Part shown: positions 7,672 to 24,829 of the stretch, one piece after another
Position numbering within the stretch: position 1 is the stretch's first letter
How the letters are laid out: each line of letters begins with the position of its first letter
Assembly: GCA_002715305.1 (NCBI GenBank)
Contig: PAYV01000007.1
Span: 1 to 39,266 of the forward strand
Source: Rickettsiales bacterium
GTDB lineage: Bacteria; Pseudomonadota; Alphaproteobacteria; Methylaequorales; Methylaequoraceae
DNA length: 39,266 nucleotides
Direction of reading: 5' to 3'
Made by a program: the position numbers and the translations under genes
Notes under the pieces: generated by a model
What the model was told of the DNA's origin: nothing
What the model saw: only the letters and a program-made list of their open reading frames with translations
Databases searched by the model: none

Positions 7672-7730
7672 TTTGCTAAATTCATTTATAGTAATTTATT
7701 TAAAATTTAATTTTTGCTTGTAAAATTTTA

Positions 7731-7743: not shown

Positions 7744-7805
7744 TCTCTTTAATAAGCGACAAAAAAAGTTGATCCAAAAGTCAGAATACAGTTAAATTAT
7801 TAATT

Positions 7806-9303: not shown

Positions 9304-10118
9304 GATATACTCTCATATAATTCAGTGTAATTCTGAATCATTTTATTAAAGTCATATTTTTTTGAATCTTTTAATGCCTGCGCCCCCAATTTTTTAATAA
9401 TTTTTTTATTAATGATTAAATATTTCATAATATTGAAAAGCTTATGATGGTCATTTTTATCAATCAAAAAACCATTCTTATTATTTATTACATCCAGGTT
9501 GCCTCCAACACGTGTTGCAATCACTGGTATACCAAAACTAAGAAATTCCAAGATACTATTGGAAAAACCTTCTTCGTCAGATGATGATATTCCAATATCA
9601 CTAATTTTATAAAAATCCTCTATATTTAAGGATTGTTTAAAAAAATGAATGTGATTTTTAAGATTATATTCTTCTATCAAAATTCTCAGAGAACGTTCAT
9701 AAACTATATCACCACTTCCAACAAAGATAATTTTAAAGTTTTTATATTCTTTCAAAAGCAAATGTGCTGCCTTAATAACCATTTTATGATTTTTATATGG
9801 AATCAAATTGGCTATAACAGAGAAAATAATACTTTTTGAATTAGAATATTTGTTGAGGATACTAAAATCTGTAGACTTACTAAGTCGAGTTTTATTGTTT
9901 TTAAGCACTCCATTATATATGAGCTTGAGTTTATGTTTCATTACACCTTCTTTTTCAAGTTGACTAATTACTGCTTTTGAATTTCCTAAAGCATATTTAA
10001 CTTTAGAATGTAAAAATTTTTCAATTCTAGAAATTGGTATAAATTTGTATTTTTTTTGATAATTATTTAAAGATCTTCTACTCATTAATACATTTTTTTT
10101 TTTTAAGTATCCAACCAA
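9300..10118 (-). CDS. glycosyltransferase GT4, C-terminal half only (frame-shifted continuation of 10078-11610)
   Basis: Contains SSDEEGFSNSILEFLSFGIPVIATRVGGNLDVI (GT4 E-x7-E region) but lacks the N-terminal Rossmann half. The first ATG is at 10085 and the track start at 10118 is TTG. It overlaps the upstream ORF across an A12 run. Confidence 0.7.
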   Translation of the reverse strand: MVGYLKKKNVLMSRRSLNNYQKKYKFIPISRIEKFLHSKVKYALGNSKAVISQLEKEGVMKHKLKLIYNGVLKNNKTRLSKSTDFSILNKYSNSKSIIFSVIANLIPYKNHKMVIKAAHLLLKEYKNFKIIFVGSGDIVYERSLRILIEEYNLKNHIHFFKQSLNIEDFYKISDIGISSSDEEGFSNSILEFLSFGIPVIATRVGGNLDVINNKNGFLIDKNDHHKLFNIMKYLIINKKIIKKLGAQALKDSKKYDFNKMIQNYTELYESIS

Positions 10119-11610
10119 TTAATCCACCAAATATATATGATTGAGGTAAAAAACAATGAATAATCTGAGGTTTAAATAAATTCAAGTAATAAAGTACTTT
10201 AAAAAAATTTATGAAGTGATCAATTTTTTTAAAAATTGGTTTTTTTGGCTTAATAACTCTAACAAACGGATTTAGTTCTTTGAAAAGATTTCCTTCTTCA
10301 TTTAAAAGAAATAAATCAATATTGAAAATATTTCTGTCAAGATTATTAATTAAACTAATTAGATGTCTTTCTGTACCGCCAAGATTCAAAGAACCAATAA
10401 TAAATGAAATTCGTATTTTTTTATTTTTATTTTGATACTGTATTTCATTTTTTAATTTTGATATATATTTTTTTTTAAACTGAAAATACCATTTTCTATT
10501 TTGACTTCCTTTTTTTACTTCAATACTTTTATCAAACTTTAATAGATAATTTGCAATTTCACTGGGATTATTTATGTTTATAAAATTAGGAAGTGTTATC
10601 TTCTTTTCTAAATATCTGTCTTTAATACTAAGTTGATGAAAAAAATTTTTTCCTCTATTTATGAATTCCCAACCGCAGGAACCCCAGAACATATTTGCAA
10701 ATTCTGAGGAACCTATATCACAAACATCAATAAGATTATAAATTTCTGTTCTTTTAAGTTTAGGTATCCATAAAAAATGCTTTTCTAATCCATATTTTGA
10801 AATTAGTTTTTTAGTATCTTCAACATCTGGACCATACTCAGTAAGAATTACATAGATATTTTTTTTGTATGAAAGGGAGTAATATTGCTTAACTCCTTCA
10901 ACCAACCAATTGTTTCTTTTACCAAATCCATCCATATAATTTTTATATGGTAAATTTTTCCAAAAGTGAGCTACATGAGAAAATATTTTTATTGAGCTTT
11001 TTGGAAGTTTTCCAATTTTATGCATCCACAATTCATTAGTCTTATAAAGTTTTTCTTCAAATAGGGGAAAAATTGGGATTATATTTGGTAGAATTCCCAT
11101 TTTTTTAAATGTATTCAATGAAAAATCATGAAGATTAAATGTTGTTATACTATTGCAATTATCCAATGAACTATACTGAAGAAAGGAACAAATTTTAAAC
11201 CATAATATCTTCGGAAAATTTAACATTTTTCTTGAAAATATTATTTCTTTCAAATTATCAGTATTTTCGTTTATATGCTCAATACCTTCCCCATAAGGCA
11301 TAAAAATGTTTAATTTTCTGTGAATTTTTTTTAAAATATAAGGTGATATCCCGTTTCCAATTAAAAAATCAAAAGTTTTTAATTTATCTATTAAGAATTC
11401 CTTATTAAAAAATAGAATATCAGGTTTACCATTGGAAACTCCTAAATTATGAATAAATTTTTTCCATTTAGAAAGATCATGGGAATCTTCTTCTGGAAAA
11501 AAAAATTCATTGTTGAATAAAAATAAATGGGCATCATAACCTTCATTTCTAAGTATTCTCATAAGAGAAAAGTTATTATTATTCATATTTCCTAAAAGTC
11601 CAATTTTCAT
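10078..11610 (-). CDS. two-part protein: ~400-aa uncharacterised GT-B-like domain plus the N-terminal half of a GT4 glycosyltransferase, truncated by a frameshift
   Basis: The last ~110 aa (IRISFIIGSLNLGGTERHLISLINNL...IIHCFLPQSYIFGGLIGWILKKKK) form a GT4 N-terminal domain that stops just after an A12 run. Residues 1-400 (MKIGLLGN..., IYVILTEYGPDVEDTKKLISKYGLEKHFLWIPKLKRTEIYNLIDVCDIGSSEF) look like a second, divergent GT-B unit. Confidence 0.65.
   Translation of the reverse strand: MKIGLLGNMNNNNFSLMRILRNEGYDAHLFLFNNEFFFPEEDSHDLSKWKKFIHNLGVSNGKPDILFFNKEFLIDKLKTFDFLIGNGISPYILKKIHRKLNIFMPYGEGIEHINENTDNLKEIIFSRKMLNFPKILWFKICSFLQYSSLDNCNSITTFNLHDFSLNTFKKMGILPNIIPIFPLFEEKLYKTNELWMHKIGKLPKSSIKIFSHVAHFWKNLPYKNYMDGFGKRNNWLVEGVKQYYSLSYKKNIYVILTEYGPDVEDTKKLISKYGLEKHFLWIPKLKRTEIYNLIDVCDIGSSEFANMFWGSCGWEFINRGKNFFHQLSIKDRYLEKKITLPNFININNPSEIANYLLKFDKSIEVKKGSQNRKWYFQFKKKYISKLKNEIQYQNKNKKIRISFIIGSLNLGGTERHLISLINNLDRNIFNIDLFLLNEEGNLFKELNPFVRVIKPKKPIFKKIDHFINFFKVLYYLNLFKPQIIHCFLPQSYIFGGLIGWILKKKKCINE
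10093..10104 (-). repeat. A12 homopolymer (coding strand) at the frame break between the two GT4 halves
   Basis: Confirmed by ORF arithmetic: the four Lys codons AAA of ...GWILKKKKCINE* occupy 10093-10104. Removing one A gives ...GWILKKKNVLMSRRSLNNYQKK..., which reads straight into ORF 9300-10118. Confidence 0.9.
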
Positions 11611-12362
11611 TTATTTAAAACCTCAACAATTTTTCTTGTATCTATAAAATTTACTAAAACACCCATATTTTTTTTTTGGTAAACAACCATACTACCAAGA
11701 CCTACGGCTGACACTCCACATTTTAGAATTTTTTTAATATGTTTTAAATTTCCTGCACCACCATGAGCAATAACTGGAATATTTATCGCCCTTACAATTT
11801 GCTCTATAAATTCATAGTCAAATCCATTCCAAGTTCCTTCATGATCTATTGATGTTAAAATAATTTCACCAACACCATCATATTCTAATTGTTTAACCCA
11901 ATTTAGGATTTCATATTTTTGTTTATTCCTACCAGAATTTGAAAATATTATTTTTTTGCCGTTTATATATCTATAATCAATAGAAGCAACAATCGCTTGA
12001 CTTCCGAATTCATTTGACAAATTCTTCATAAAATTTTTATCAATGTAACTGTGTGTGTTCACAACTATTTTTTCAACACCAAGTCTAAAAAGTGACTCTG
12101 CATCCTTGATTCTACAAATCCCACCTCCATATGCTAATGGCATGAAACATTCCGAGGCTAACTCTGATATTAAGTTGAGATTAATTTTTTTTTGGTTGGT
12201 TGCATCTACATCAAGTAAAATCATCTCATCAACTTCGAGTTCATTGAATATTCGAGCAGTATTACATGGATCACCTATATAATTAAACTTATCAAAGTTT
12301 ATTGTTTTTATTAAACTTCCATTTTTAATCAGTAAAACTGGAATCATTCTTGGTTGTATCAT
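11607..12362 (-). CDS. hisF: HisF-like cyclase subunit (WbuZ / HisF2-type, acetamidino-sugar module)
   Basis: 251 aa. MIPVLLIKNGSLIKTINFDKFNYIGDPCNTARIFNELEVDEMILLDVDAT and GAGNLKHI match the imidazole glycerol phosphate synthase HisF fold. Its location in a glycan cluster next to hisH-like and wbuX-like genes marks it as the paralogue, not histidine biosynthesis. Confidence 0.8.
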   Translation of the reverse strand: MIQPRMIPVLLIKNGSLIKTINFDKFNYIGDPCNTARIFNELEVDEMILLDVDATNQKKINLNLISELASECFMPLAYGGGICRIKDAESLFRLGVEKIVVNTHSYIDKNFMKNLSNEFGSQAIVASIDYRYINGKKIIFSNSGRNKQKYEILNWVKQLEYDGVGEIILTSIDHEGTWNGFDYEFIEQIVRAINIPVIAHGGAGNLKHIKKILKCGVSAVGLGSMVVYQKKNMGVLVNFIDTRKIVEVLNK

Positions 12363-12964
12363 TATATTTCACAAAAGTTTTTTAATATTTTCATACCATG
12401 CTTATGACTCTTCTCTGGATGAAATTGAACTCCATAAAAATTTTTAAATGCAAAAGATGAAGTGAAGTCTTCACCATAATGTGTTTCTAAAATTTCATAT
12501 TTTTTGTTCTTTAGTTTAACAACGTATGAATGAATAAAATAAAATTTGGTTTTTTTGGTGAGATTGGAATTTAATTTTACTTTATTTTTTATTTTTACAT
12601 TATTCCAACCCATGTGAGGAAGTATCAAATTAGAACTTTTAATTTTTTTCACTTCTCCATCAACCCATCCAAGTCCAGGTAGTTGACCTTCTTCGCTTTT
12701 TTTAAAAAGAATTTGCATTCCCAAGCATATTCCTAAAATTGGACTTTTTTCTTTCAAAACTTTATGTTCTAAGATGGAAAAAAAAGATGATTCTTTTACT
12801 TTTTGCATGGCATTATCAAATGAACCAACCCCTGGTAAAATAAACTTATTAGATTTGTTTAAATCATTTTCATGGCGACAAATAATATTTTTTATACCCA
12901 TTCTTTTGTACATATTGCTTATTGATGCAATATTTCCTAATCCAAAGTCAAGTATTCCAATCAT
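12362..12964 (-). CDS. hisH: HisH-like glutamine amidotransferase subunit (WbuY-type)
   Basis: 200 aa. Class I GATase triad context: ILPGVGSFDNAM, GICLGMQILF (nucleophile Cys), GVQFHPEKSHKHG (His/Glu). 1-nt TAATG overlap with the hisF-like gene. Confidence 0.8.
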   Translation of the reverse strand: MIGILDFGLGNIASISNMYKRMGIKNIICRHENDLNKSNKFILPGVGSFDNAMQKVKESSFFSILEHKVLKEKSPILGICLGMQILFKKSEEGQLPGLGWVDGEVKKIKSSNLILPHMGWNNVKIKNKVKLNSNLTKKTKFYFIHSYVVKLKNKKYEILETHYGEDFTSSFAFKNFYGVQFHPEKSHKHGMKILKNFCEI

Positions 12965-14133
12965 TTACAATATTTTAAATAAAAGCTATAAGGTACAAGG
13001 TTTCTTTTTGATAAAAATAAGAATAATAATCTCATTCTTTCAAAAATTTTTTTATAGGTTTTATAGTCCTTCCAGCATTTAGGACGAGCATTCATTATTG
13101 AATTGTATTCATTATTTTTTATACTGAGTCTTTTTTGAAAATACTCAATTAACTCAGTGGTATCAGTTATTTTTTTATTATAGGTTTTCCAGGCTTGTGT
13201 TCTTGACATCTTTTTGCTTCTCACCTGGGCTGACAATGTATTATTCCTTAGATCAACGTTAAACTTCTGGGGGTTATAAACTTTATGGTAAAACGAAGTC
13301 ATAATATTTTCAAGATGATGTCCACCATAATACTTCCATTTGAAGTTTTTCTTCAAAAATTTCTGTGCTTCTTCTTTTGAATATTCAATATACCAAAAAG
13401 GTCTTATTTTTTTTATTTTTTTAAAACATGTCCAATATAAAAACCTTGATAATGTCATTAGTGGGTAAGTTTGCATTTTCATTGTACCAAATTGTTTGTG
13501 TATATCTTTTATATACATTCCATCAAAATAGTTTTTATTTAATGGCGTAATACCTTCTTCAACAAATGAATGACCTTCTAGTATGTATGAAATATTATAT
13601 TTATTAGCTGCTCTATACATAACTTCTGCAAGCGCTAGGTCAGTTGAAGCTTCTATTTCTGGAACTCCAGCTTTAAAAAATGATCTAAAAATATCATCCA
13701 TTTCTTTGTTATTTACCACATAAGTATAAAGATCAATATCAAGAATCTTGAGTACTTTTGCTATATTCATAGTCGCTATTGATGAATTAAACGTATTATC
13801 AAAATGGACGGCTAGTGGACGCAATTTCCATTTTTTTTTCGCAAGATATAATAAATATGATGAGTCAGTTCCTCCACTTACACCTATAATACAGTCATAT
13901 TTCTTTTTCTGTCCAGCCCGTTTAATATCAATAAGAATATTACTTAATTTTTCTTTTCCAAGCTCCTTACCAGTACCATAATTACTCTTGAGCTCCAATA
14001 TTTGATTGCAGTAATTACAAACTCCATTTTTATCAAAAAAAATTCCAGGTACATCTAAATCATATATACAATTTGTACATACTTGAATTTCCTTACCTCT
14101 TTTTTTTAGTAACTTTTTATTTGAATCTTTCAT
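12961..14133 (-). CDS. N-acetyl sugar amidotransferase (WbuX/WbpG/PseA family, PP-loop ATPase)
   Basis: 390 aa. N-terminal Cys-rich motif CTNCIYDLDVPGIFFDKNGVCNYCNQ and PP-loop CIIGVSGGTDSSYLLYL, as in the LPS-cluster amidotransferases that make acetamidino groups. Confidence 0.75.
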   Translation of the reverse strand: MKDSNKKLLKKRGKEIQVCTNCIYDLDVPGIFFDKNGVCNYCNQILELKSNYGTGKELGKEKLSNILIDIKRAGQKKKYDCIIGVSGGTDSSYLLYLAKKKWKLRPLAVHFDNTFNSSIATMNIAKVLKILDIDLYTYVVNNKEMDDIFRSFFKAGVPEIEASTDLALAEVMYRAANKYNISYILEGHSFVEEGITPLNKNYFDGMYIKDIHKQFGTMKMQTYPLMTLSRFLYWTCFKKIKKIRPFWYIEYSKEEAQKFLKKNFKWKYYGGHHLENIMTSFYHKVYNPQKFNVDLRNNTLSAQVRSKKMSRTQAWKTYNKKITDTTELIEYFQKRLSIKNNEYNSIMNARPKCWKDYKTYKKIFERMRLLFLFLSKRNLVPYSFYLKYCK

Positions 14134-15049
14134 GATTACACTTTAACAATTCTTCTATTAATTGTTTTCCACCTATATTTTCTGCATCTAAAATTTCTAA
14201 TAAAAAATCATTACATTTTACATAAATTTTTTTTTGCAAAACAAATATTTGTCCTGGTTTTCCAAAAACTAGGGGTTTATAAGCAATTTTGGACTTGAAG
14301 ATTATTACTTGCTTTTTATTAAGAAATGTAAATGCTCCAGAATATGGTCTGGAAGATGCTCTTATTAAATTATATATTTTATGAGCTTTAAAATTCCAAT
14401 CGATTATTGAATCATCTGGTATTCTATTGAGTCCATATGACTCTTTTTTTTTTCCTGAAGAAGTTTTTTTATTCCCTTCTAAAATTTGTTTTAAATTTTT
14501 ATCTAATAAATCTAATGTCGCGACTTTGCATTTTTCAATCAAGTCAGAAATATAATCAGTTTTTTTAATTATAAATTCTTTTCTTGCATATATTTTTCCT
14601 GCATCAATATTTTTAGATATTTCAAAAAGGGATACTCCTGTTTTTTTTAATTCATTTATAATTGCCCAGTTCAATGGTGCATGCCCTTTTAGTTGAGGCA
14701 ATAAAGAGGAATGAATTCCAAGGCAAATCCTTATGTTATTTAATATTTTAGGTGGTATATTGTGAAACCAGCCCGCTGCAAGTATTACTTCTGTTTTAGA
14801 CGTGTTTAAGAAACTATTCAAATTGTTAGTATTATTCTTATAAAAGAAAGTGGGGATATTATGCTTGTCTGCTATTGATGAAAGATTTGTAAATCTAACA
14901 TTTTTTAATTTCTTTTTACTATAGCTAATAGAAATTTTTTCTTTAATGGTAACCACGCCATTCAAATTATACCCTTTTTTTAATAAATAATTGAAAATAT
15001 GCAAAGTTAAGTCAGTTGAACCAAATAAAGTGATTTTATTTTTTTTCAT
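14117..15049 (-). CDS. formyltransferase, Fmt/ArnA-N-terminal-like (probable sugar N-formyltransferase)
   Basis: 310 aa. N10-formyl-THF site pattern ILAAGWFHNIPPKIL...GIHSSLLPQLKGHAPLNWAI...DAGKI, plus an Fmt-like C-terminal domain (IDWNFKAHKIYNLIRASSRPYSGAFT). Confidence 0.7.
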   Translation of the reverse strand: MKKNKITLFGSTDLTLHIFNYLLKKGYNLNGVVTIKEKISISYSKKKLKNVRFTNLSSIADKHNIPTFFYKNNTNNLNSFLNTSKTEVILAAGWFHNIPPKILNNIRICLGIHSSLLPQLKGHAPLNWAIINELKKTGVSLFEISKNIDAGKIYARKEFIIKKTDYISDLIEKCKVATLDLLDKNLKQILEGNKKTSSGKKKESYGLNRIPDDSIIDWNFKAHKIYNLIRASSRPYSGAFTFLNKKQVIIFKSKIAYKPLVFGKPGQIFVLQKKIYVKCNDFLLEILDAENIGGKQLIEELLKCNHERFK

Positions 15050-16151
15050 TTTTTTTTAAACTTAAAAATTTATTAAATATTTCTAGAACATAACTTTGTT
15101 CATTACTTGTCATTTGATAATAAAGAGGTAAGGCTAATGTGTGTTGAGCAAGGAAGACACTGTTATTTAAATTTCTACAAACTTTTACATTTTTATTTTT
15201 TTTGAATGCATTATGCTGATTTAAAGCATAATAACCAATTTGAGCCTCTATTCCCTTAGATCTTAAATACTTCATAGCTTGATCTCTATTATTAAGTGTA
15301 ATACAAAAAGTTTGATAAGAATGTTTTGAATTTTTAGTTACTTCTTGTATTTGTATATTCTCGTGTTTAGACAATTCATTTTTATAATTTTGTACAATAT
15401 TATGTTTTTTTTTCAAAATTTTATCAAAAATTTTTATTTGATTGATTCCAAATAACGCATTTATATTAGACATTTTAAGATTAGTTCCTGAAATTTTAAA
15501 TATAGATTTACCCTCTTTTTTTAACCCAAAGTTTTTAAACATTCGCAACCACTCAATTTTTTTTGTATGATTGGATGCAACTACCCCTCCTTCTCCAGTA
15601 GTAATTGATTTCCTGGGATGAAAGCTAAAGATTGTATAATCTGCTATATTTCCAATTTTTTTTTTTTTGTAAGTTGTTCCTAAAGCAGCTGCAGCGTCCT
15701 CAATAATTACAAATCCATACTTTTTCTTAAGCTTAAGAAGTTTATCGTAGTTTAATGAATTACCAAAAACAGAAACAGGAATAACAACTTTTGTTTTTGT
15801 CGATATGTTTTTAGACAGTTCATCAAAACATAAATTATAATCGTATTTATTAACATCAATTAATTTTATTTTATGATTATAAAGTATTGCAGGAGATATC
15901 GTAGCAGGGTAAGAAAAATTTGGAGCTATAATTTCGTCATTTTTTTTTAAATTTAAACTTTTAATTACAGCTTCTAATGCTGTAGTAGCAGATGTAAAAG
16001 CAATACAATCTTTACAACCAATATATTCTTCAAGAAGTCGTTCAAATTTTTTTGTGTAATTTCCTTCAGTTAAGAATCCTGTTTGTATTAGGTTTCTGAT
16101 TTCTTGATATATACTTTTTGTTATGTATGGTCTAGCTAATGGAATTTTCAT
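15036..16151 (-). CDS. DegT/DnrJ/EryC1/StrS family PLP-dependent sugar aminotransferase
   Basis: 371 aa. LEEYIGCKDCIAFTSATTALE, IEDAAAALG, and the PLP-lysine context FSFHPRKSITTGEGGVV. Confidence 0.8.
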   Translation of the reverse strand: MKIPLARPYITKSIYQEIRNLIQTGFLTEGNYTKKFERLLEEYIGCKDCIAFTSATTALEAVIKSLNLKKNDEIIAPNFSYPATISPAILYNHKIKLIDVNKYDYNLCFDELSKNISTKTKVVIPVSVFGNSLNYDKLLKLKKKYGFVIIEDAAAALGTTYKKKKIGNIADYTIFSFHPRKSITTGEGGVVASNHTKKIEWLRMFKNFGLKKEGKSIFKISGTNLKMSNINALFGINQIKIFDKILKKKHNIVQNYKNELSKHENIQIQEVTKNSKHSYQTFCITLNNRDQAMKYLRSKGIEAQIGYYALNQHNAFKKNKNVKVCRNLNNSVFLAQHTLALPLYYQMTSNEQSYVLEIFNKFLSLKKNEKK

Positions 16152-16178
16152 AAAAGCTTTTTGTTTTAAAATGCGTAT

Positions 16179-18047
16179 CTAAATCTCTCTTGTTATAAAG
16201 GTTTTAATAAAGTAATTTAAATATAGCATCGACCAAATATGTAATCTGTTATTTCTTTGGCCCTTTATGTGCTCGTCTACTTTTTTTTTGACAATTTTAA
16301 AGTCAAGATATTTAAAAATATCTTGATTTTTGTCTAGCAAGTTATCTTTAACAAAATCAATACTTTGGCCTTTGAACCATGATTTATCAGGTCCAGAAAA
16401 GCCTTGTTTCCTTTCATTAGAAATATCAAATGGAAGGATATCATGAATTGCTTCACGAAGTATTAATTTTCCATCATTATAATTATTATAAAAATAATCA
16501 ACTTTATTTTCATTTGTATTTTCATCGAAACTAAAATTTTTATTAATATTTTTTAGCTTCATCTTTAATGGAATTTGTGATGCTAGTTCACATAATTCAT
16601 TATCCAAAAAAGGAACTCTAGTTTCTAATGAATGAGCCATTGATAATTTATCTTCAACAATTAGTAAACCATGAAGAAATGTTTTTATCTCAAATTTTAA
16701 AGAGTAATTAATTAAATCAGTATGGGTAGGATTATTTTTTTTTATATTTATTATTGATTTAAACTTTTCAAAAAACATAAATTTTTCATATTTCTTCCCT
16801 AGTAATTTATTTAGTTCTTTATGGTCGAATAATCTATTCCAAAAACTGAAATATTGATTATAAAAATGATCGGTATTATTTAAAACCTTATTCTTATAGT
16901 ATCTCCAAGGGTAACCAGCAAATAATTCGTCTCCACCTATACCGGTTAATAAAACTTTTCCAAAATTACTAGCTAATTTCGATGCGTAATAATTTGGGTA
17001 ACTTTGTCCAACTCTTGGTTCTTCAAGATGCCAAACGATTTTTTTGAAGGCTCTTTCCATGTCTCCTGACTTCAGTACTAATTCATAATGTTCAGTTCCT
17101 AATTCAGCTGAAACTTTTTCTGCTTTCTTTCTCTCATCAAAAAAAAGCTCAACACCAGAAACAGAATCCATATTAAATCCAATTGTGAACGTTTTCATTT
17201 TTTTTATTTTATTACTTGCAAGTGCTGTAATTACACCTGAGTCAATTCCGCCACTTAAATAAGAAGATACAGGAACATCACTTATAATTTGATTATTTAC
17301 AGCATTATTGAGAGCATTCTTAAGTTTAATCTTTGTTTTATTAAAATCAGAAAGTTCAGAGTTTTCTTCAAAATTAAATTCAAAATAATCCCTTTTTTGA
17401 ATATCTCCATCAAGAGATAATTTCAAAAATGAGCCGGGTTTTAGAATCTTAACATTTTTAAATAAAGTATCGCAATCTATAAAATTCTGAAATGTTAAAT
17501 ATTCAGCAAGACTATCTGAACATATCTGCAGTTTATTTTCTGGATAAAATAAAAAAGACTTAATTTCTGAAGAAAATAAAAAGAAGTCTTTTTTTTTATA
17601 GTAATAAATTGGTTTTATACCGAATCTATCTCTGGCAAGAATAAGTTCTTTTTTTTCTTTATTAAAAATCGAAAAAGAAAACATTCCATTAAATTTTAAT
17701 AAACATTCAGGTCCCCACTCGATAAATGAATTGAGAACAACCTCAGTATCACTTTGTGAAAAAAATTTATAACCACGTTTTTTTAATATTTCTCGCAATA
17801 AAAGAAAATTATATATTTCCCCATTATAAGAAATGACCCATTCTCCATTTTTTGATTGCATTGGTTGAGAGCCTTTATTTGATAGATCAATGATTGAAAG
17901 CCTGGTATGACCTAAAGCAAGGTTTCTAAAAATATATTGTCCTTTTCCATCTGGACCTCTATGACCAAGAGACTCGATCATTTTTTGAAGAATATTAGCA
18001 TTCGCTTTATTTTTTTTTAAATCAATAAAACCAACAATGCCACACAT
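16179..18047 (-). CDS. asnB: asparagine synthase (glutamine-hydrolysing) family amidotransferase, copy 1 (WbpS-like)
   Basis: 622 aa. N-terminal MCGIVGF (Ntn Cys2), HRGPDG, and PP-loop YLSGGIDSGVI. Confidence 0.8.
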   Translation of the reverse strand: MCGIVGFIDLKKNKANANILQKMIESLGHRGPDGKGQYIFRNLALGHTRLSIIDLSNKGSQPMQSKNGEWVISYNGEIYNFLLLREILKKRGYKFFSQSDTEVVLNSFIEWGPECLLKFNGMFSFSIFNKEKKELILARDRFGIKPIYYYKKKDFFLFSSEIKSFLFYPENKLQICSDSLAEYLTFQNFIDCDTLFKNVKILKPGSFLKLSLDGDIQKRDYFEFNFEENSELSDFNKTKIKLKNALNNAVNNQIISDVPVSSYLSGGIDSGVITALASNKIKKMKTFTIGFNMDSVSGVELFFDERKKAEKVSAELGTEHYELVLKSGDMERAFKKIVWHLEEPRVGQSYPNYYASKLASNFGKVLLTGIGGDELFAGYPWRYYKNKVLNNTDHFYNQYFSFWNRLFDHKELNKLLGKKYEKFMFFEKFKSIINIKKNNPTHTDLINYSLKFEIKTFLHGLLIVEDKLSMAHSLETRVPFLDNELCELASQIPLKMKLKNINKNFSFDENTNENKVDYFYNNYNDGKLILREAIHDILPFDISNERKQGFSGPDKSWFKGQSIDFVKDNLLDKNQDIFKYLDFKIVKKKVDEHIKGQRNNRLHIWSMLYLNYFIKTFITREI

Positions 18048-18050
18048 GAC

Positions 18051-19025
18051 TTATTTTTTTACCTTCTTTAGTTTTTTTTCTCTCCAAGTAATTAAGTCTT
18101 TTAACCCTTCTGCTAGACCTACTTTACTTATGAATTTTAAATCTACCTCAGCTTTTTTTACTGATCCAATTCTATTTTTAACGAGTGTGCTATTGAAATT
18201 TTTTTTGAATTTAATTTTTTTTTTTTTTCCCACTAAATCATAAAGTGTTTCAGCAAGATTAAGAAGAGAGGTTTTTTTTCCGGTTCCAACATTATAAAAA
18301 CCTTTTTTTACATCAGAAGACATAGCTAAGATATTTGATCGAGCGCAATCCTTGACTGAAATGAAGTCAAATGACTCACTGCCATCTCCAAAAATAGTTA
18401 CATGTTTATTTTTATCAATAGCATCTAACATTCGCATTATTACAGCAACGTAAGCTCCTGAATAATCTTGTCTTGGTCCGTAAACATTCATATATCTTAG
18501 ACCAACAAAATTTAAGTCATATCTATGATGAAACGCATTGAGCATAGATTCTCCACATATCTTTGTTGCACCATAAAAATTTTTAGAATTAAAAGGATGT
18601 TTTTCTGTCATTGGTTCCTCCTCTGCATCACCATATACTGATGCTGATGAAGAAAAGATAAGTTTTTTTATTTTTTTCTTTATACAACAATTTAATATAT
18701 TGAATGTTCCTTCAATATTAGTTTTGAAGGCTGATTCAGGATATTCATGACATTGAAGTAACCACAATGCTGCAAAATGAAAAACTCCATCAATACCACT
18801 CATTGATTTTTCTAAAATATCTTTTTGAAGAATACCCCCGCCATGATCAAAAACTTTTACTTTAGGATTTTTTAGTGCTTCAGACAAATTTTCAGTTCTA
18901 CCGCGAAAAAAATTATCAAATACAATAATTTCTTTTATATTTTCTCGTAAAAGTAAATCAACTGTGTGTGAACCAATCAATCCTGCTCCACCAATAACTA
19001 AAAATTTTTTATTTTTTAAAATCAT
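18051..19025 (-). CDS. NAD-dependent epimerase/dehydratase (extended SDR, WbpP/TviC-like or UDP-uronate decarboxylase-like)
   Basis: 324 aa. VIGGAGLIGSH, SSSASVYG, YGATKICGE (YxxxK), RYMNVYGPRQ. The exact reaction cannot be assigned from sequence alone. Confidence 0.7.
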   Translation of the reverse strand: MILKNKKFLVIGGAGLIGSHTVDLLLRENIKEIIVFDNFFRGRTENLSEALKNPKVKVFDHGGGILQKDILEKSMSGIDGVFHFAALWLLQCHEYPESAFKTNIEGTFNILNCCIKKKIKKLIFSSSASVYGDAEEEPMTEKHPFNSKNFYGATKICGESMLNAFHHRYDLNFVGLRYMNVYGPRQDYSGAYVAVIMRMLDAIDKNKHVTIFGDGSESFDFISVKDCARSNILAMSSDVKKGFYNVGTGKKTSLLNLAETLYDLVGKKKKIKFKKNFNSTLVKNRIGSVKKAEVDLKFISKVGLAEGLKDLITWREKKLKKVKK

Positions 19026-20176
19026 TTTTTATAGAAATTATTTATTGTTTCAGCAATGTACTCAGCTTGACTATTACACATATAACCGTGAATTGGAATG
19101 CTTAATACTTCTTTGCAAGCTTCTTCACAATTTATAAGTGAATTGTTAAAATTCGTAAATTTTTTATATGCCTTTTGCTTATTAAGTGGTTTCGGATAGT
19201 AGATCATCGTTGGAATTTTTTTTTGTAATAAAAATTCTTTTAAATTATCTCTATTTTTTGTTCTTATTGTGAATTGTGACCATACTGAATAAGATTTATC
19301 TTGTTTATCTGGTAATTTGATATTTTTACATAAATTTTTTAAATAAAAATCTGATATTTCGTTTCTTCTTTTTATCTCTTTTTTAAATAATTTTAATTTC
19401 TCAAGTAAAACACTAGCTTGGATGGAATCAAGTCTACTGTTTAATCCTACAAAAATATTATCGTACTTATTTTCACCTTTGCCGTGGATTTTAAGAGAAG
19501 AAATCTTTGACGCTAATTTTTCTGACTCTGTAAATACACAACCTCCATCTCCATAACAACCAAGAGGTTTAGAAGGAAAAAAACTTGTTGTTGTAACATC
19601 AGAATATAATGTTATTGATTTTTTATTATATTTTGATCCAAATGCTTGAGCTCCGTCATTTATCCATAAAAGATTATTTTCTTTACAGACCTCCAACAAT
19701 TCTGAATAATTTGCAGGTTCACCAAATAAATCTGCTGTAATTATACCCTTAATTTTAATCTTTTCATTTCTAGCTTTAATTATAATTTTTTTTAGTTCAT
19801 TAATATTTATTGAGAAATTATCTTTATTAATATCTACAAAAATTGGTTTGACTCCTAACTGTGTTGGTGATTCAACAGTTGAAATAAAACCAAAAGCTGG
19901 TGTTATAATATAATCGTCAGATTTAAAGTCTAATGCCATTAGAGCTAATGTAATTGCATCGGTACCATTGGCACAAGTTATTGAAAACTTACTTTTACAA
20001 AAATTAGATAACTCGGTTTCAAGTTTTTTTACCTCGGGTCCCATTATAAACTTTCCACGTTCAAGTGTTTTTTGAATTGATTGATTAATTTTTTTTTTAT
20101 TTACATCTAACTGTATATCAATTCCACTAAATGAAATTTTTCTTGAGCTATATAATTGATCTTTATTTTTTTTCAT
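19022..20176 (-). CDS. DegT-family aminotransferase, WbpE/WlbC-like
   Basis: FIMGPEVKKLETELSNFC, ITCANGTDAITLAL, NDGAQAFGS, TTSFFPSKPLGCYGDGG. The start is taken at the internal ATG 20176 (MKKNKDQ...). The track start at 20293 would overlap the upstream acetyltransferase gene by 131 nt. Confidence 0.75.
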   Translation of the reverse strand: MKKNKDQLYSSRKISFSGIDIQLDVNKKKINQSIQKTLERGKFIMGPEVKKLETELSNFCKSKFSITCANGTDAITLALMALDFKSDDYIITPAFGFISTVESPTQLGVKPIFVDINKDNFSININELKKIIIKARNEKIKIKGIITADLFGEPANYSELLEVCKENNLLWINDGAQAFGSKYNKKSITLYSDVTTTSFFPSKPLGCYGDGGCVFTESEKLASKISSLKIHGKGENKYDNIFVGLNSRLDSIQASVLLEKLKLFKKEIKRRNEISDFYLKNLCKNIKLPDKQDKSYSVWSQFTIRTKNRDNLKEFLLQKKIPTMIYYPKPLNKQKAYKKFTNFNNSLINCEEACKEVLSIPIHGYMCNSQAEYIAETINNFYKK

Positions 20177-20732
20177 GAACCAAAAACCCATTTTTAATGA
20201 TATAAAAATTTTTTTCTCTTGGACATTTAAGATTTTTATCCAAAACCTCACCTGCATGACTAACCCATCCTTTTTGAATTGCTGGAACCCCAATCATAAG
20301 AGAATGTGGCCTGCAATCTTTAGTCAAAACCGCACCAGCTGCTATTAAAGAAAATGAACCAACTTTTGTTCCGCAAATTATAGTTGCATTAGCACCAATA
20401 GATGCACCTTCAAAAACATGAGTTTTTAAAAATTCATTTTTCCTTGAAACAAAACTTCTCGGAGTTTTTACATTAGTAAAAACTACACTAGGACCACAAA
20501 ATACATTATCTTCTATTATAATATTCTCATAAATCGAAACATTATTTTGAATTTTGACTCCATCACCAATTACTACATTTTCTCCCACAAAAACATTCTG
20601 ACCTAGAATACATTCTTTCCCAATCTTGGCACCTTTTGAAATATGAGAAAAATGCCAAATCTTTGTATTGTCTCCAATTTCAACCTTCTGGTCAACAAAA
20701 GAACTTTTATGAATAAAAAATTTATTTTTCAT
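20163..20732 (-). CDS. hexapeptide-repeat (left-handed beta-helix) N-acetyltransferase, WbpD/WlbB-like
   Basis: 189 aa. Repeated [LIV]G-x4 hexapeptides (VEIGDNTKIWHFSHISKGAKIGKECILGQNVFVGENVVIGDGVKIQNNVSI) and the FTNVKTPRS segment seen in WbpD-type enzymes. Confidence 0.75.
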   Translation of the reverse strand: MKNKFFIHKSSFVDQKVEIGDNTKIWHFSHISKGAKIGKECILGQNVFVGENVVIGDGVKIQNNVSIYENIIIEDNVFCGPSVVFTNVKTPRSFVSRKNEFLKTHVFEGASIGANATIICGTKVGSFSLIAAGAVLTKDCRPHSLMIGVPAIQKGWVSHAGEVLDKNLKCPREKNFYIIKNGFLVHEKK

Positions 20733-21669
20733 TAATAAATTTCTTAGCTAAGGGATGATATTCCTCAATAAGAGGACTGATTTTTTTATGTCTAAGTTCA
20801 TAAACTGTTCTGATGGAATCTTCTGTATCATTTATTTGATAACCTTCATTACATAAAATTTTTTCATATGATATTGTATGAAGATCTTCAAAACCTTTAT
20901 TTAAATCAATTTTCTTACCATTTATAATCAATTCTTTAAATGTATTTTGTTTATTTTTAACTTTTGTAGGTAAATGATCAAAATTTAATGATAAAAACCA
21001 TCTCACTCTAGCATTTTTAAAATTAATTATTCCTGCTGCAAAATCTCTTTTTCTTATATGAATTTTTGTTGACTCAACTTTTCCATAAATCCAGCATAAT
21101 AAATCAAAAAAATGAATTCCTATATTTAATAAAATACCTCCAGATTTAGATTCATCTCCTTTCCAACTGTTATAATACCAATTTCCTCTTCCTGTTATGT
21201 AGGTTAAATCTATATCAGAGATTTGTTTAGAATTTTCTTCATTATTTTTTAGCTTTATAACATTCGACAGATATCTCAATTGAAGAATTGTGAAAACATT
21301 TTTTTTATTTTCCTGAGACATTTTTAAAATTGAATCAAGGTTCCAAGGATTAATAACAATTGGTTTTTCACAAATTACATGACTCCCAGATCTTAAAGAG
21401 AAACGAATATGTGAATCATGAAGATAATTGGGTGAACAAATACTTATAAAATTTATTTTTTTATTTTGAATTCTAAGTTTATCCAAATATCTATCAAATC
21501 TCTCTAACTCAACAAAAAAATGAGTTTTTGGAAAAAATTTATCTAAAATTCCGATGCTATCAAACGGATCATATGCTGCTAACAATTTATTACCAGTATC
21601 ATGAATAGCCTTCATATGTCTTGGAGCAACGAAACCTGAGGCACCAATTATTGCAAATTTTTTAGACAT
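20722..21669 (-). CDS. Gfo/Idh/MocA family oxidoreductase, WbpB/WlbA-like
   Basis: 315 aa. KFAIIGASGFVAPRHMKAIHDTGNKLLAAYDP N-terminal Rossmann fold and EKP motif (VICEKPIV). It is adjacent to WbpD-like and WbpE-like genes in the canonical order. Confidence 0.75.
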   Translation of the reverse strand: MSKKFAIIGASGFVAPRHMKAIHDTGNKLLAAYDPFDSIGILDKFFPKTHFFVELERFDRYLDKLRIQNKKINFISICSPNYLHDSHIRFSLRSGSHVICEKPIVINPWNLDSILKMSQENKKNVFTILQLRYLSNVIKLKNNEENSKQISDIDLTYITGRGNWYYNSWKGDESKSGGILLNIGIHFFDLLCWIYGKVESTKIHIRKRDFAAGIINFKNARVRWFLSLNFDHLPTKVKNKQNTFKELIINGKKIDLNKGFEDLHTISYEKILCNEGYQINDTEDSIRTVYELRHKKISPLIEEYHPLAKKFINEK

Positions 21670-21681
21670 AATTCTTTTTCT

Positions 21682-23595
21682 TTAAATATTAACTGTTTTT
21701 TTTTTAAAATTATCTAACCATGCCTGAAATGTTAGTACATTCCAAAGCAAGTACTTATTATTTATAATATTAATTTTATTTTCTTTAATTTTAAAAATCT
21801 CATCGTAGTCATAAAAACCTTCTTCGATAATTTTTTTTCTATCTAAAGTATCATGCATCCAGCTATGCAATTTACCGGTAAGCCACTCTCCAAGCGGCAC
21901 ACCAAATCCCATTTTAGGTCTTAAAAATAGATCCTCAGGTAAATAATTATTTAGGATTCTTTTAAGAATAATTTTTTTTTCCTTAAATTTTTGGTCAAGT
22001 TTCCATGATGATTCAATTACATCTTTATTTAAATATGGTACTCTTACTTCTTGCGAACAAAACATACTTGCTCTGTCTACTTTTGTAAGAATATCATCAG
22101 GAAGATAATGTAACATATCTTCCAACTGCATAAATTCGAAAAAATTTTTACAATCTAAACCATCGTTTAAACCTAAATTTATAGATGAAGTGAAGTCCTT
22201 TATGAGTTTATCAGAATTATGTTTAGTACTAATTAAAGTTTCATATATAAAACTATCTTTCTCACTTAAAATTAAAAATACTTTTTTTAATTTATCCATT
22301 AGTTGAGGTATTCTTGAAATATTAAATCTTTCATAGAATTGTAAACCATATCTTTGAAAAAAATATAGAAACAATTTTGAGATGTTTGTTAACAAAAACT
22401 TTGGAACTAATCTTTTCATAGCTCTGATTTTATCAGCATAAAAATATCTATTATAACCACCAAATAATTCATCAGCACCATCACCAGAAAGTACTACTTT
22501 TACATATTTCTTTGACATTTTAGAAACTAAGTAAGTTGGAATTTGTGATGAATCACCAAATGGTTCAGAATATATTTCTGGTAACTTTGGAATAACATCC
22601 AAAAGGTCATTGTCAGATAAATACAATTCATGATGATCTGTTCCTAAATATTTTGCAATTTTTTTTGAATGTTGTGCTTCATTATATTTGTTTTCATTAA
22701 AACCTATTGAAAAAGTTTTAAGGTTCTTAGTATGGTTATTCATGATTGATACTAATAAAGATGAATCAATGCCACCAGATAAAAAGGCACCTGTTGGTAC
22801 ATCAGAAATCATAGAGCTTTTAATTGATTGAGTAATTTTTTTTTCAATTTCTGAATCTATTTGATGTGAACTTAGTCCAGAAAATTTTGAATAATTTTTT
22901 AGTGATTTTGAATCCCAATATTTGTAATTTATTTTTTTTCTAAAAATATCAACACTTAAAATCTCTCCTGGTTTTAGTTTATGAACATTTTCAAAAATTG
23001 AATTTGGAGCTCTAATGTAACCATATTTTAGTAACTGTGATAAAGATGTTTTATTTATCTTCGGATCAAAATTTGGAATTGTTTTTAAACATCGAAGATC
23101 TGAACAAAAGAAAAAAAAATCATTGTTAAGTGTCCAGTAAATCGGCTTTATTCCAACTCTGTCTCTTGCAAGATAGATACTTCTTTTTTTTTCATCCCAT
23201 AAAGCTAATGAAAACATCCCATCCATATTTTTTACTGAATTTTCTAAGCCAAATTTAGATATATATTCCAAAATCACTTCGGTATCAGAGTTTCCTTTAA
23301 ATGATACATCCTTTTCAAGTTCCCTCTTTAAACTTAAATAATTATAAACTTCACCGTTATATGAAATAACAAAATTTCCTGAATTTGATGTCATTGGTTG
23401 ATTTCCGTTTGAGGACAAATCAATTATAGAGAGTCGATTATGAGCTAAAGCAACTTGATTATTTTCATGAAGCCAGAAAGAGTTATTATCTGGTCCCCTA
23501 AAATTTTGAGATTTTAAAGCTTTCTGAAGAATATTTATTATATTCTTTTTCCCAAACTTATTATTAAAATCAATTAGTCCTATTATTCCACACAT
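21682..23595 (-). CDS. asnB: asparagine synthase (glutamine-hydrolysing) family amidotransferase, copy 2
   Basis: 637 aa. MCGIIGL (Ntn Cys2), FRGPDN, and PP-loop FLSGGIDSSLL. It is the first biosynthetic gene after the ops-like element. Confidence 0.8.
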   Translation of the reverse strand: MCGIIGLIDFNNKFGKKNIINILQKALKSQNFRGPDNNSFWLHENNQVALAHNRLSIIDLSSNGNQPMTSNSGNFVISYNGEVYNYLSLKRELEKDVSFKGNSDTEVILEYISKFGLENSVKNMDGMFSLALWDEKKRSIYLARDRVGIKPIYWTLNNDFFFFCSDLRCLKTIPNFDPKINKTSLSQLLKYGYIRAPNSIFENVHKLKPGEILSVDIFRKKINYKYWDSKSLKNYSKFSGLSSHQIDSEIEKKITQSIKSSMISDVPTGAFLSGGIDSSLLVSIMNNHTKNLKTFSIGFNENKYNEAQHSKKIAKYLGTDHHELYLSDNDLLDVIPKLPEIYSEPFGDSSQIPTYLVSKMSKKYVKVVLSGDGADELFGGYNRYFYADKIRAMKRLVPKFLLTNISKLFLYFFQRYGLQFYERFNISRIPQLMDKLKKVFLILSEKDSFIYETLISTKHNSDKLIKDFTSSINLGLNDGLDCKNFFEFMQLEDMLHYLPDDILTKVDRASMFCSQEVRVPYLNKDVIESSWKLDQKFKEKKIILKRILNNYLPEDLFLRPKMGFGVPLGEWLTGKLHSWMHDTLDRKKIIEEGFYDYDEIFKIKENKINIINNKYLLWNVLTFQAWLDNFKKKTVNI

Positions 23596-23620
23596 AATCT
23601 TCTTTGAGTTTTTTTAATCA

Positions 23621-23633
23621 ATAGCTACCGCAA
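23621..23633 (-). promoter_or_regulatory. ops-like element copy 1 (TGCGGTAGCTATT on the coding strand)
   Basis: Plus strand AATAGCTACCGCA sits in the 80-nt gap between the RfaH-like gene stop (23676) and the asnB-like ATG (23595). GCGGTAGC is identical to positions 2-9 of E. coli ops. An exact 13-nt duplicate lies at 7731-7743. Confidence 0.55.
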
Positions 23634-23675
23634 TTCCAAGAGCAATCAAGGAATGGAAAATAAAAGTAGAATTAT

Positions 23676-24185
23676 TTAGTTTGGCAAAATGCAATCTTTT
23701 TCCAAGACTAAAGTTTTTTTATTCGAAATAAAATCTAGTAAAATTTTTATTCTATTATTTCCTACCATAGAAATTATTTCTCCAAACATTCTTTTGAAAG
23801 GTCCTTTTACTACTATGACACTTGAACTTGGTTTAAAAAAATAAATTTGTTTATTTATTAAACCATCATTGTTGGCGTGAAATCTTAAATTTTCTATAAA
23901 ACTCTTATCTATTTGTGAGGGAATAGAACCTATTGATAAAACTTTTTTTACTCCCTGTGTATACCTTATTTTTAACCATTGATAATTACTGAGATTGAAC
24001 TTTACAAAAATATATGACGGAAATAAAAATTCTTTTACAATCTTACCAATCTTACCATTCAATTTTTCTGTTTCAAAATAAGGACTGAAAGCATCAAAGT
24101 TCTGATTTCTTAGATTTTTTATTGCTCTATCTTCTTGGTTTGGTTTACACATTACAACAAACCAATTTTTTTCATTTTTTTCCAT
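23676..24185 (-). CDS. rfaH: NusG-family paralogue, RfaH-like transcription antiterminator
   Basis: 169 aa from ATG 24185. NGN domain WFVVMCKPNQEDRAIKNLRNQNFDAFSPYFETEKL...FLFPSYIFVKFNLSNYQWLKIRYTQGVKKVL. KOW-like C-terminus SVIVVKGPFKRMFGEIISMVGNNRIKILLDF. ATG 24185 overlaps the upstream stop by 14 nt. The track start at 24299 is over-extended into the regulator gene. Confidence 0.75.
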   Translation of the reverse strand: MEKNEKNWFVVMCKPNQEDRAIKNLRNQNFDAFSPYFETEKLNGKIGKIVKEFLFPSYIFVKFNLSNYQWLKIRYTQGVKKVLSIGSIPSQIDKSFIENLRFHANNDGLINKQIYFFKPSSSVIVVKGPFKRMFGEIISMVGNNRIKILLDFISNKKTLVLEKDCILPN

Positions 24186-24795
24186 ATTTTTTCTTTGGTT
24201 TGAAATTTGGTTTATTTCTACTAATAAAAAGCGAACTAACTGTAAATATTTTATTCTCATGATAATTTTCAGCAATTTTAAAATAAATTTCTTGAGCATT
24301 ATCAGTAGAACACAATAAAAATTTGAGGTTTTTTGAATTTTCTGGAATCTTTTTAATTATAGGTATATTAAAATAAAATTTTTTTTTTGTTTTTGGTTCA
24401 ATAACACCGATAATATTAGCATTAAATTCATTGGCCGAAAGAATTGCAATTTCACTTATTTCACTAATACCATAAATGATGAATTCACAGCTTAAATTTT
24501 CAGAAAAGAGTTGATTAAACTCCTTTCTCATAGATCTAAACAATGATAAAGAATCATTTAAATAGTTTAAAACAAGTTTAGATTTTTCAGAAAAACCCTC
24601 TGGAGTCAGATAATATACAAATCTTTTATAAGGAGCTTGTTGAACTTTTATTATACCTTTTTTTAAAAATTTTTTTATTAAAGCGTTGACGAAGCCAATA
24701 GATACAGAGATCTTGTTAGATATATTTTTTTGAGTAACCTCTTTTCCTTCTTCAAGAGAAGATAAAAAATCAAGTTCAGAATTCTTTTTTTTCAC
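24172..24795 (-). CDS. winged-helix (MarR-like, EPS-associated type) transcriptional regulator with a C-terminal Rossmann-like domain
   Basis: 207 aa. The N-terminus TQKNISNKISVSIGFVNALIKKFLKKGIIKVQQAPYKRFVYYLTPEGFSEK is a typical wHTH. The C-terminal half (FIIYGISEISEIAILSANEFNANIIGVIEP) resembles the N-terminal nucleotide-binding-like module of NeuD/sugar-transferase proteins. GTG start at 24795. Confidence 0.55.
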   Translation of the reverse strand: MKKKNSELDFLSSLEEGKEVTQKNISNKISVSIGFVNALIKKFLKKGIIKVQQAPYKRFVYYLTPEGFSEKSKLVLNYLNDSLSLFRSMRKEFNQLFSENLSCEFIIYGISEISEIAILSANEFNANIIGVIEPKTKKKFYFNIPIIKKIPENSKNLKFLLCSTDNAQEIYFKIAENYHENKIFTVSSLFISRNKPNFKPKKKYGKK

Positions 24796-24801: not shown

Positions 24802-24829
24802 ATTATATCATCAAATAATTGTAATTCAA
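24802..24829 (-). promoter_or_regulatory. candidate sigma70-type promoter (TTGAAT-16 nt-TATAAT) upstream of the regulator/rfaH-like genes
   Basis: On the minus strand, TTGAAT (24829-24824), a 16-nt spacer, then TATAAT (24807-24802). The hexamers and spacing are the same as the candidate at 7806-7833. The -10 ends only 6 nt before GTG 24795, so either the mRNA is nearly leaderless or the true start codon or promoter differs. Confidence 0.3.

Follow-up and report, generated by a model that had tools for sequence, protein, structure and literature searches.

Here we describe a surface-sugar operon of about 23 kb in an uncultured, AT-rich marine alphaproteobacterium that appears to carry its own elongation-control module: a gene for an RfaH-like specialised NusG paralogue and two intergenic sequences whose core is identical to that of ops, the element read by Escherichia coli RfaH. 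The window, by which we mean the whole stretch of DNA analysed, is 39,266 nt of contig PAYV01000007.1 (assembly GCA_002715305.1), and the operon lies on its minus strand. RfaH with ops is the standard example of recruitment of a factor by a hairpin in non-template DNA. We consider it probable that the window encodes an operon-embedded RfaH/ops-type processive antitermination (elongation-control) module. A dedicated system of this kind was proposed in a preliminary description of the same DNA, made from the letters alone, and that proposal is supported as far as sequence analysis goes. The observed features are the sequences themselves, their conservation, strand bias and leader position, an adjoining hairpin, and the family and predicted fold of the protein.

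Ops-like elements and their upstream hairpins

An 80-nt gap (23596-23675) separates the rfaH-like gene from the first biosynthetic gene, which encodes an AsnB-type amidotransferase (ATG at 23595, product starting MCGIIG). On the coding strand this gap contains ...CTTGGAATTGCGGTAGCTATTGATTAAAAAA... and, within it, the 13-mer TGCGGTAGCTATT, which is separated by 43 nt from the stop codon of the rfaH-like gene and by 24 nt from the amidotransferase gene (Table 1); the preliminary description had put it correctly at about 40 nt, on the coding strand. Its 8-nt core, GCGGTAGC, equals positions 2-9 of E. coli ops, including C3, G4, G5, T6, A7 and G8 with the C3:G8 pair. This claimed identity is thus confirmed, while the bases after C9 differ (TATT against GTG in E. 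coli) and position 1 is T, unlike in E. coli. The second 13-mer reported earlier is indeed an exact copy in the other large gap, a 186-nt interval (7672-7857) that follows a Wzx-type flippase gene and precedes the eight final genes, but its coordinates (7731-7743) were off by one. These two exact copies are the only ones in the window; each is sense-oriented and occupies one of the operon's two largest gaps, and the core occurs at these two sites and nowhere else on either strand. With up to two mismatches allowed, TGCGGTAGCTATT has three matches where 0.23 are expected, and none of 100 shuffles reached three, which agrees with the earlier judgement that two intergenic sense copies are unlikely by chance.

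Related loci were gathered from one GTDB genome, 35 metagenome contigs and exact-protein look-ups. Across the 29 AT-rich loci (231 kb), GCGGTAGC is found 23 times in sense, that is on the strand of the rfaH-like gene, and never in antisense, with about 0.17 occurrences per strand expected from base composition; the enrichment is strand-specific and exceeds 100-fold. All of these sites lie in a glycan-operon leader or intercistronic gap, and cognate cores are present in 21 related loci beyond the two window sites. Conservation at orthologous loci and the bias towards sense leaders, on which the preliminary description had made its reading depend, are therefore both observed. The core lies 44-56 nt after the last rfaH-like codon in most lineages. 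In the L040/L014 lineage no element follows rfaH; it is found 7.5 kb upstream, in the leader where the operon starts. In L040 the hairpin-ops unit (2441-2448) sits in a divergent intergenic leader and the marR-rfaH pair 7.5 kb inside the operon (10001-10510), so that the regulators would be under their own antitermination control. This placement, together with the second window copy far from rfaH, indicates that the element tracks operon leaders rather than the rfaH gene.

Seventeen aligned leaders have the invariant columns T-GCGGTAGC-NN-T, where NN is TA or CG, usually followed by G. Homologues of 24-30 % identity encoded in DNA of 46-66 % GC carry GCGGTAGC 71-130 nt past the gene, and the full E. 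coli sequence GGCGGTAGCGTG is present, 75-130 nt past rfaH, in three GC-rich loci (L023, L031 and L036). In E. coli, mutations of C3 and T6 reduce RfaH recruitment and those of G4, G5, A7 and G8 abolish it (PMC5995543). The sole variant of the core, seen in a single metagenome contig, is GTGGTAAC, which occupies the orthologous place (1003-1010) in L006, a contig closely related to L047, where the hairpin and the TATGG flanks are unaltered. This variant combines C3>T with G8>A, converting the C3:G8 pair into T:A, a pair-keeping double change as predicted by the non-template mini-hairpin model (Zuber et al. 2018, PMC5995543).

Each window element is directly preceded by a hairpin, a feature shared by all 18 distinct AT-clade leaders, in which the hairpin ends 0-3 nt before GCGG. 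The minimum free energy is -5.3 kcal/mol for hairpin 1 (z -3.2 against shuffles) and -3.8 kcal/mol for hairpin 2 (z -1.4), the latter weak alone and conserved in position. Stems vary by lineage (ATTCC/GGAAT, GTCTC/GGGAC, GTTCTTCA/TGAGGAAC, CTTTCTATT/AATAGGAAG, TCCTGAA/TTCAGGA and GCTTT/AAAGC). In 17 of 17 cases tested, the 30-nt segment preceding the core folds more stably than composition-matched shuffles (median p 0.012; Fisher 3.5e-16, a combined value that overstates independence because the sequences are related), and these segments rank at a median percentile of 0.039 in folding stability against other windows of the same locus. In a hairpin-registered alignment pairing holds in 92 % of cells, and changes on both sides are seen at each of the six outer pairs; this alignment was made by hand on the minimum-energy hairpin of each sequence and is hence fitted to structure, so we place the weight on the shuffle and same-locus tests. 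RNAalifold on the ungapped alignment returns only the mini-stem G2:C9/C3:G8, missing the upstream hairpin because loop positions differ.

The hairpin belongs to ops rather than to the 3′ end of rfaH, since it is also present at the second window element and at the L040 element, neither of which follows rfaH. With no T-run after it, an intrinsic terminator is ruled out. From the stem base to the invariant T12 there are 11-14 nt, which is the distance from which nascent-RNA hairpins stabilise paused polymerase at his-type pauses.

The arrangement resembles JUMPstart (RF01707), in which a stem-loop likewise lies 0-3 nt before GCGGTAGC in a glycan-operon 5′ leader. As a control, the E. coli rfb JUMPstart scores 60 bits (cut-off 35 bits) and has a 5-bp stem-loop ending 2 nt before GCGG, and the GC-rich locus L023 reaches 24 bits. 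The window differs in lacking any match to the JUMPstart covariance model at E up to 10, in its unrelated stem and loop sequences, and in having no upstream GGTAGC direct repeat; Rfam E-value scans of both gaps gave noise only (snoRNA, lncRNA).

The RfaH-like protein and its partner regulator

The 169-aa protein begins MEKNEKNW, with its start given as MEKNEKNWFVVMCKPNQ. A longer open reading frame (ORF) from 24299, annotated by NCBI as a 207-aa hypothetical protein, is not supported, as all homologues begin at MxKN and are 167-170 aa long. The NGN domain, KOW-like tail and parallel with RfaH described earlier for this ORF all hold: Pfam detects NGN at residues 6-100 (E 1.5e-17) and no other domain, the best matches in a search of the PDB are E. 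coli RfaH chains (E 1.3e-11, residues 6-155 against 2-148) with NusG behind, and the C-terminal domain is predicted to have five strands. The proposed classification with RfaH and NusG profile hidden Markov models gave a split answer, with RfaH best (TIGR01955, 104.7 bits, spanning residues 8-163; NF006534, 86.6) and well ahead of NusG (53.3), but below the RfaH cut-off. UpxY (NF033644, 60.6 bits against a cut-off of 100) and LoaP (53.8) rank between them, and all of these scores fall under the curated cut-offs. The same holds for clade members and nearest outgroups, for which RfaH models are likewise best-scoring and likewise below cut-off; the RfaH of L023, a GC-rich homologue in the same gene context, exceeds it (151.7 bits). 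The clade is compact, with one representative at 50 % identity followed by a drop from 304 to 150 bits, within a surrounding family of 2,283 representatives at E <=1e-10. The protein's own family forms 53 clusters, whereas AmpG in the same lineages forms more than 6,800. This rarity and the location in a glycan island argue that the protein is an accessory paralogue rather than the housekeeping NusG.

Among the side chains by which E. coli RfaH contacts ops, the PDB alignment shows K10 and Q24 kept (K14 and Q28). K14, N24, N27 and Q28 are invariant in the 17 closest clade sequences, and N24 exceeds 90 % in a set of 42. Of the residues involved in autoinhibition, E48, I93 and R138 have equivalents, as E52, I97 and R145, and F130 is replaced by Ile. 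A run of AlphaFold2 (AF2) on 17 sequences gave a C-terminal domain that could not be interpreted (predicted local distance difference test, pLDDT, <50). With 42 sequences the mean pLDDT was 88.8 and the C-terminal domain was modelled as a five-strand all-beta fold at pLDDT about 90. By Foldseek the whole model matches NusG and the 'fully recruited' active-state RfaH 8phk_P, while autoinhibited RfaH structures match over the NGN domain only. The five-strand model and these matches favour a predicted NusG-like beta state, although AF2 may miss a second fold; the alpha-hairpin packed on the NGN domain, raised in the preliminary description, is not what AF2 predicts.

Upstream lies a gene for a winged helix-turn-helix (wHTH) regulator whose 3′ end overlaps the rfaH-like start by 14 nt. 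Its best and nearly sole match is MarR_EPS (TIGR04176, 58.1 bits, missing the cut-off of 88), alongside Pfam MarR/HTH_24 matches, and residues ~105-207 (24172-24485, minus strand) match no family. The same overlapping pair is found in L037-L040. In the GC-rich loci L023, L031 and L036 a bona fide MarR_EPS (139-147 bits) stands beside RfaH, in the order marR-rfaH-ops in L023 and L036 and rfaH-ops-marR in L031. MarR_EPS, RfaH and the canonical ops sequence occur together at L023 1746-2795, L031 2923-4051 and L036 2420-3570. They look like a widespread, undescribed regulatory trio of exopolysaccharide (EPS) and lipopolysaccharide (LPS) loci, of which the window would thus hold a divergent AT-rich version within a wider proteobacterial module. 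In the GC-rich loci the MarR_EPS partners measure only 145-192 aa, counted from the first start of the ORF, and their additional residues precede the domain; the AT-rich clade has thus gained a C-terminal extension.

A consensus scan placed a promoter-like site just upstream of the wHTH gene, a candidate promoter of the regulator pair and the operon. Because it ends 6 nt before the GTG start, the wHTH mRNA may be leaderless or nearly so. A second such site lies in the internal gap. In this AT-rich window promoter-like sites are unenriched (111 found, 130 expected). The ops-like motif itself was considered as a promoter -10 element and rejected, since TAGCTAT and TAGCCGT are without the required A2/T6 pattern and differ between loci.

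Table 1. Coordinates of the regulatory features and gene blocks in the window
Feature	Position	Strand	Details
RfaH-like specialised NusG paralogue gene	23676..24185	-	169 aa; NGN + KOW-type C-terminal domain
wHTH regulator gene	24172..24795	-	207 aa; divergent MarR_EPS type; GTG start
Ops-like element 1	23620..23632	-	TGCGGTAGCTATT; core GCGGTAGC at 23624-23631
Ops-like element 2	7730..7742	-	TGCGGTAGCTATT; core at 7734-7741; in 186-nt gap after flippase gene
Hairpin 1	23633..23654	-	ATTCC...GGAAT; ends 1 nt before TGCGGTAGC; candidate nascent-RNA pause hairpin
Hairpin 2	7743..7760	-	GTCGCTT...AAGAGAC, one mismatch; ends 1 nt before TGCGGTAGC
Promoter-like site upstream of wHTH gene	24802..24829	-	extended -10; TTGAAT-16 nt-TGaTATAAT; consensus scan
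Promoter-like site in internal gap	7806..7833	-	TTGAAT-16 nt-TATAAT; ~64 nt upstream of ops-like element 2; candidate
Proximal block	7858..23595	-	14 co-oriented genes; ORF list + Pfam/NCBIfam
Distal block	864..7671	-	8 co-oriented genes

Proposed mechanism and competing explanations

From these features we infer ops binding, pausing, antitermination, a role for the hairpin, promoter use and a preference for action in cis. RNA polymerase would start upstream of the wHTH-rfaH pair, probably at the promoter-like site there, and transcribe both regulators. About 20 nt past the rfaH stop it would transcribe the short hairpin and then directly TGCGGTAGC. In the transcription bubble the non-template GCGGTAGC would fold into a small loop closed by C3:G8, with G5 and T6 exposed, and the NGN domain of the RfaH-like protein would bind this loop while the nascent-RNA hairpin, its base 11-14 nt upstream of T12, holds the polymerase for loading. 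The loaded factor would displace NusG and make the polymerase processive over the 16-kb proximal block. At the internal gap the hairpin-ops unit (7730-7760) may reload the factor, or load polymerases from an internal promoter, for the last eight genes. Because its synthesis takes place within a few dozen nucleotides of the loading site and its C-terminal domain is predicted to be NusG-like beta, the factor probably acts mainly on its own operon.

This scheme shares with E. coli RfaH/ops a NusG paralogue that scores best on RfaH models, ops positions 2-9 on the coding strand in the leaders of long surface-glycan operons, and the equivalents of E48, I93 and R138. With Bacteroides UpxY/UpxZ and opsX it shares a NusG paralogue encoded inside the operon under its control, in Bacteroides a capsule operon, and a non-template DNA mini-hairpin combined with a nascent-RNA pause hairpin at the loading site (PMC11213015). 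The UpxY ops sites carry NusA-stabilised pause hairpins that aid loading, which the authors contrast with E. coli RfaH ops (Saba et al. 2024 preprint, PMC11213015). UpxY, however, is the first gene and lies downstream of its ops, whereas here the wHTH gene comes first; no small UpxZ-like gene follows the rfaH-like gene, the UpxY score lies below the RfaH score, and the ops core is of RfaH type. LoaP (Bacillus) and TaA (Myxococcus) are likewise specialised NusG paralogues whose genes accompany their long target operons; unlike the present protein they control polyketide operons, with recruitment signals that are different or unknown, and the LoaP score here is below the RfaH score.

Several observations weigh against an RfaH/ops-type module. 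The 169-aa protein misses both RfaH cut-offs (104.7 against 144.5 bits for TIGR01955; 86.6 against 124 for NF006534), and NCBI annotates its gene as hypothetical. E. coli RfaH contacts ops through four side chains (K10, H20, R23 and R73), of which K10 alone is kept; H20 and R23 have become N24 and N27, and R73, which varies across the clade, is Q77 in the window. E. coli ops induces pausing through T11-G12, and here this dinucleotide is out of register, the clade consensus being NN-T12-G13, one base more 3′, and the window copies read TATT after the core, with no G near the second element. The two window hairpins are weak individually, and the promoters are consensus matches only. The AF2 model, a beta-barrel unlike the autoinhibited E. 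coli protein, shows no alpha-hairpin state; in the published model ops dependence and autoinhibition are coupled (PMC7593976). Finally, the wHTH gene is co-conserved with the motif, so that co-occurrence alone cannot separate the two candidate readers.

We regard it as improbable that the unit acts as RNA, the hairpin and a single-stranded UGCGGUAGCUAU tail forming a processing or stability site or a protein-binding RNA resembling the EAR/epsC-type antiterminators. The hairpin is conserved in pairing and not in sequence, the element lies at boundaries between regulator and structural genes, where differential mRNA stability would help, and Rfam files JUMPstart as an RNA motif. However, the invariant part comprises exactly the bases that E. 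coli RfaH needs on DNA, the unit matches no Rfam family, and the adjoining gene encodes a homologue of a known DNA reader.

Loading in cis without any reading of DNA, as proposed for monomorphic beta-RfaH, would reduce GCGGTAGC and the hairpin to a mere pause site for loading or ribosome coupling. The AF2 beta C-terminal domain and the changed equivalents of H20, R23 and R73 would suit this explanation. About 14 % of RfaH homologues are predicted to be monomorphic beta proteins; such proteins are encoded beside LPS operons, act without ops in E. coli and are missing some of the residues that bind it (2026 preprint, PMC13015549). The examples from Idiomarina and Pseudidiomarina (PMC13015549) and the CL4 cluster (PMC7593976) resemble the present protein in their location in or near LPS/EPS operons, predicted NusG-like C-terminal domain, HTH neighbour and some changed ops-contact residues. 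They are reported as ops-independent and no cognate ops has been described for them, whereas here a conserved ops core lies beside the gene. Moreover, G4-G8 are dispensable for pausing in E. coli and variable in the consensus pause (PMC5995543), yet invariant here, while the 3′ bases that determine pausing vary. The DNA-contact helix is fixed at N24, N27 and Q28 in the closest clade sequences, and the second window ops and the L040 ops are far from rfaH. We accordingly give loading without DNA reading little credence.

The motif could instead be a duplex-DNA operator for the adjacent MarR_EPS-type wHTH protein, acting through control of initiation or as a roadblock, with the likeness to ops incidental. 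Both AT-rich and GC-rich loci keep the wHTH gene together with rfaH and the motif, and the palindrome TAGCTA, on which the preliminary description had based this possibility, is present in most AT-clade copies. It is nevertheless not conserved, as L018 and L040 read GCGGTAGCCGTGG and all GC-rich loci have lost it; what stays invariant is GCGGTAGC, which is not palindromic. In E. coli an identical core is read by RfaH with no MarR_EPS partner (PMC5995543). The 23:0 sense bias and the position after genes or downstream of promoter-like sites fit a transcribed signal, and the L006 double change preserves an intrastrand pair that a duplex operator would not need. An operator role is thus very unlikely. 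A chance or generic dispersed repeat is effectively refuted: the 14-mer ACTGCGGTAGCTAT has at least 120 matches in a viral contig collection, but this is the chance level for a database of that size, the matches lie in DNA of 33-68 % GC with no rfaH-like neighbour and no consistent upstream hairpin, several share identical flanks across contigs as recurrent viral sequence, and the strand-specific enrichment in related AT-rich loci is left unaccounted for.

Within the RfaH/ops-type reading, we offer tentatively, and with more doubt than confidence, a further proposal. The clade may uncouple sequence-specific ops reading from fold-switching, using an operon-encoded, non-autoinhibited beta-KOW factor that depends on GCGGTAGC, reads it through Asn24 and Asn27 in place of His20 and Arg23, and substitutes a pause hairpin in the nascent RNA for the TG backtrack pause. 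If true, ops recognition preceded autoinhibition in RfaH evolution, and streamlined marine alphaproteobacteria devote an elongation factor to a hypervariable glycan island.

Operon setting and significance

The ORF list gives 22 co-oriented, mostly overlapping genes running from 23595 to 864. The roughly 24 co-oriented, overlapping genes without terminators that had been reported thus come to 22, and a terminator scan of the window found 6 terminator-like sites (4.7 expected, so that their number does not exceed chance), 5 of them on the operon strand; all 5 are intragenic and none lies in an operon gap. The products are sugar-modifying enzymes, glycosyltransferases and methyltransferases by Pfam and NCBIfam, and the operon is flanked by lipid A genes (LpxL, an LpxF-like phosphatase), CysQ and AmpG. 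The proximal block encodes two AsnB-like amidotransferases, aminotransferases, epimerases, a formyltransferase, a WbpG/HisH/HisF-like trio, glycosyltransferases and the Wzx-type flippase; the distal block encodes an unknown protein, a PPTase, GT2, GT1, a methyltransferase, GT1, an epimerase and a methyltransferase. The WbpG-like PP-loop, HisH-like and HisF-like proteins, the two AsnB-type amidotransferases, two DegT aminotransferases and the formyltransferase (11607-14133, 16179-18047 and 21682-23595, minus strand) are a set typical of the synthesis of acetamidino, amidated or formylated amino sugars. No tRNA was found in a scan of the window, and an Rfam scan of the whole window gave no gathering-level match.

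Two further observations concern individual ORFs. The ORF at 10078-11610 (minus strand) breaks off partway through a Glyco_transf_4 N-domain, of which it covers profile positions 2-96 out of 170, and the TTG-start ORF at 9300-10118 (minus strand), overlapping it by 41 nt, carries the matching Glycos_transf_1 C-domain. Together (9300-11610) they look like a single GT4 gene fused to a 400-aa N-terminal part and split by a frameshift or an assembly error. Outside the operon, a 1014-aa ORF (35956-39000, plus strand) has a weak partial phosphoenolpyruvate carboxylase match (85 bits against a cut-off of 815) and is either a very divergent carboxylase of this kind or something else.

The source assembly is labelled 'Rickettsiales bacterium' at NCBI, and the nearest named homologues of its AmpG (69-75 % identity) are listed as Pseudomonadota, Alphaproteobacteria, Rickettsiales bacterium or alpha proteobacterium MED-G10. 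Pelagibacter names are absent among the 120 closest AmpG homologues, leaving the SAR11-like origin first suggested for this DNA unconfirmed. The novelty claimed with it stands in part: our literature search for RfaH with SAR11 returned no paper, but alphaproteobacterial RfaH and HTH-linked RfaH clusters are published. Alphaproteobacteria contain 18 % of rfaH genes, clusters CL2-CL8 adjoin envelope genes and CL4 adjoins an HTH regulator (Wang et al. 2020, PMC7593976). A gene with an RfaH domain is also present in the EPS273 locus of P. stutzeri (PMC5532660). Searches for RfaH with PEP-CTERM and with MarR returned nothing on a wHTH-rfaH-ops module, and a string search for GGCGGTAG returned primers only. 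Operon-encoded RfaH relatives with HTH neighbours are thus already known, and what is added here is the extension of RfaH/ops to a new lineage. A conserved hairpin-ops unit accompanying such a gene, in this clade and in the GC-rich loci, was not found described in the literature searched. Some added interest lies in the combination of a predicted beta C-terminal domain with a conserved ops, altered reading residues and a pause-hairpin architecture.

The mode of recruitment is known for E. coli RfaH only, as Wang et al. 2020 stress (PMC7593976). The clade described here keeps the eight core bases over a very large phylogenetic and compositional distance (26 % GC), and meanwhile differs in half of the side chains that read ops, in the part of the signal responsible for pausing, in where the gene lies and probably in autoinhibition. 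It is therefore a useful natural variant for establishing which features of RfaH are essential and in what order they evolved. For annotation, it concerns a gene now labelled hypothetical. Surface-glycan islands are thought to drive strain-level differences and phage susceptibility. Abundant, AT-rich and regulator-poor marine alphaproteobacteria appear to carry a dedicated elongation-control module in such an island, made up of a wHTH regulator, an RfaH-like factor and hairpin-ops sites.

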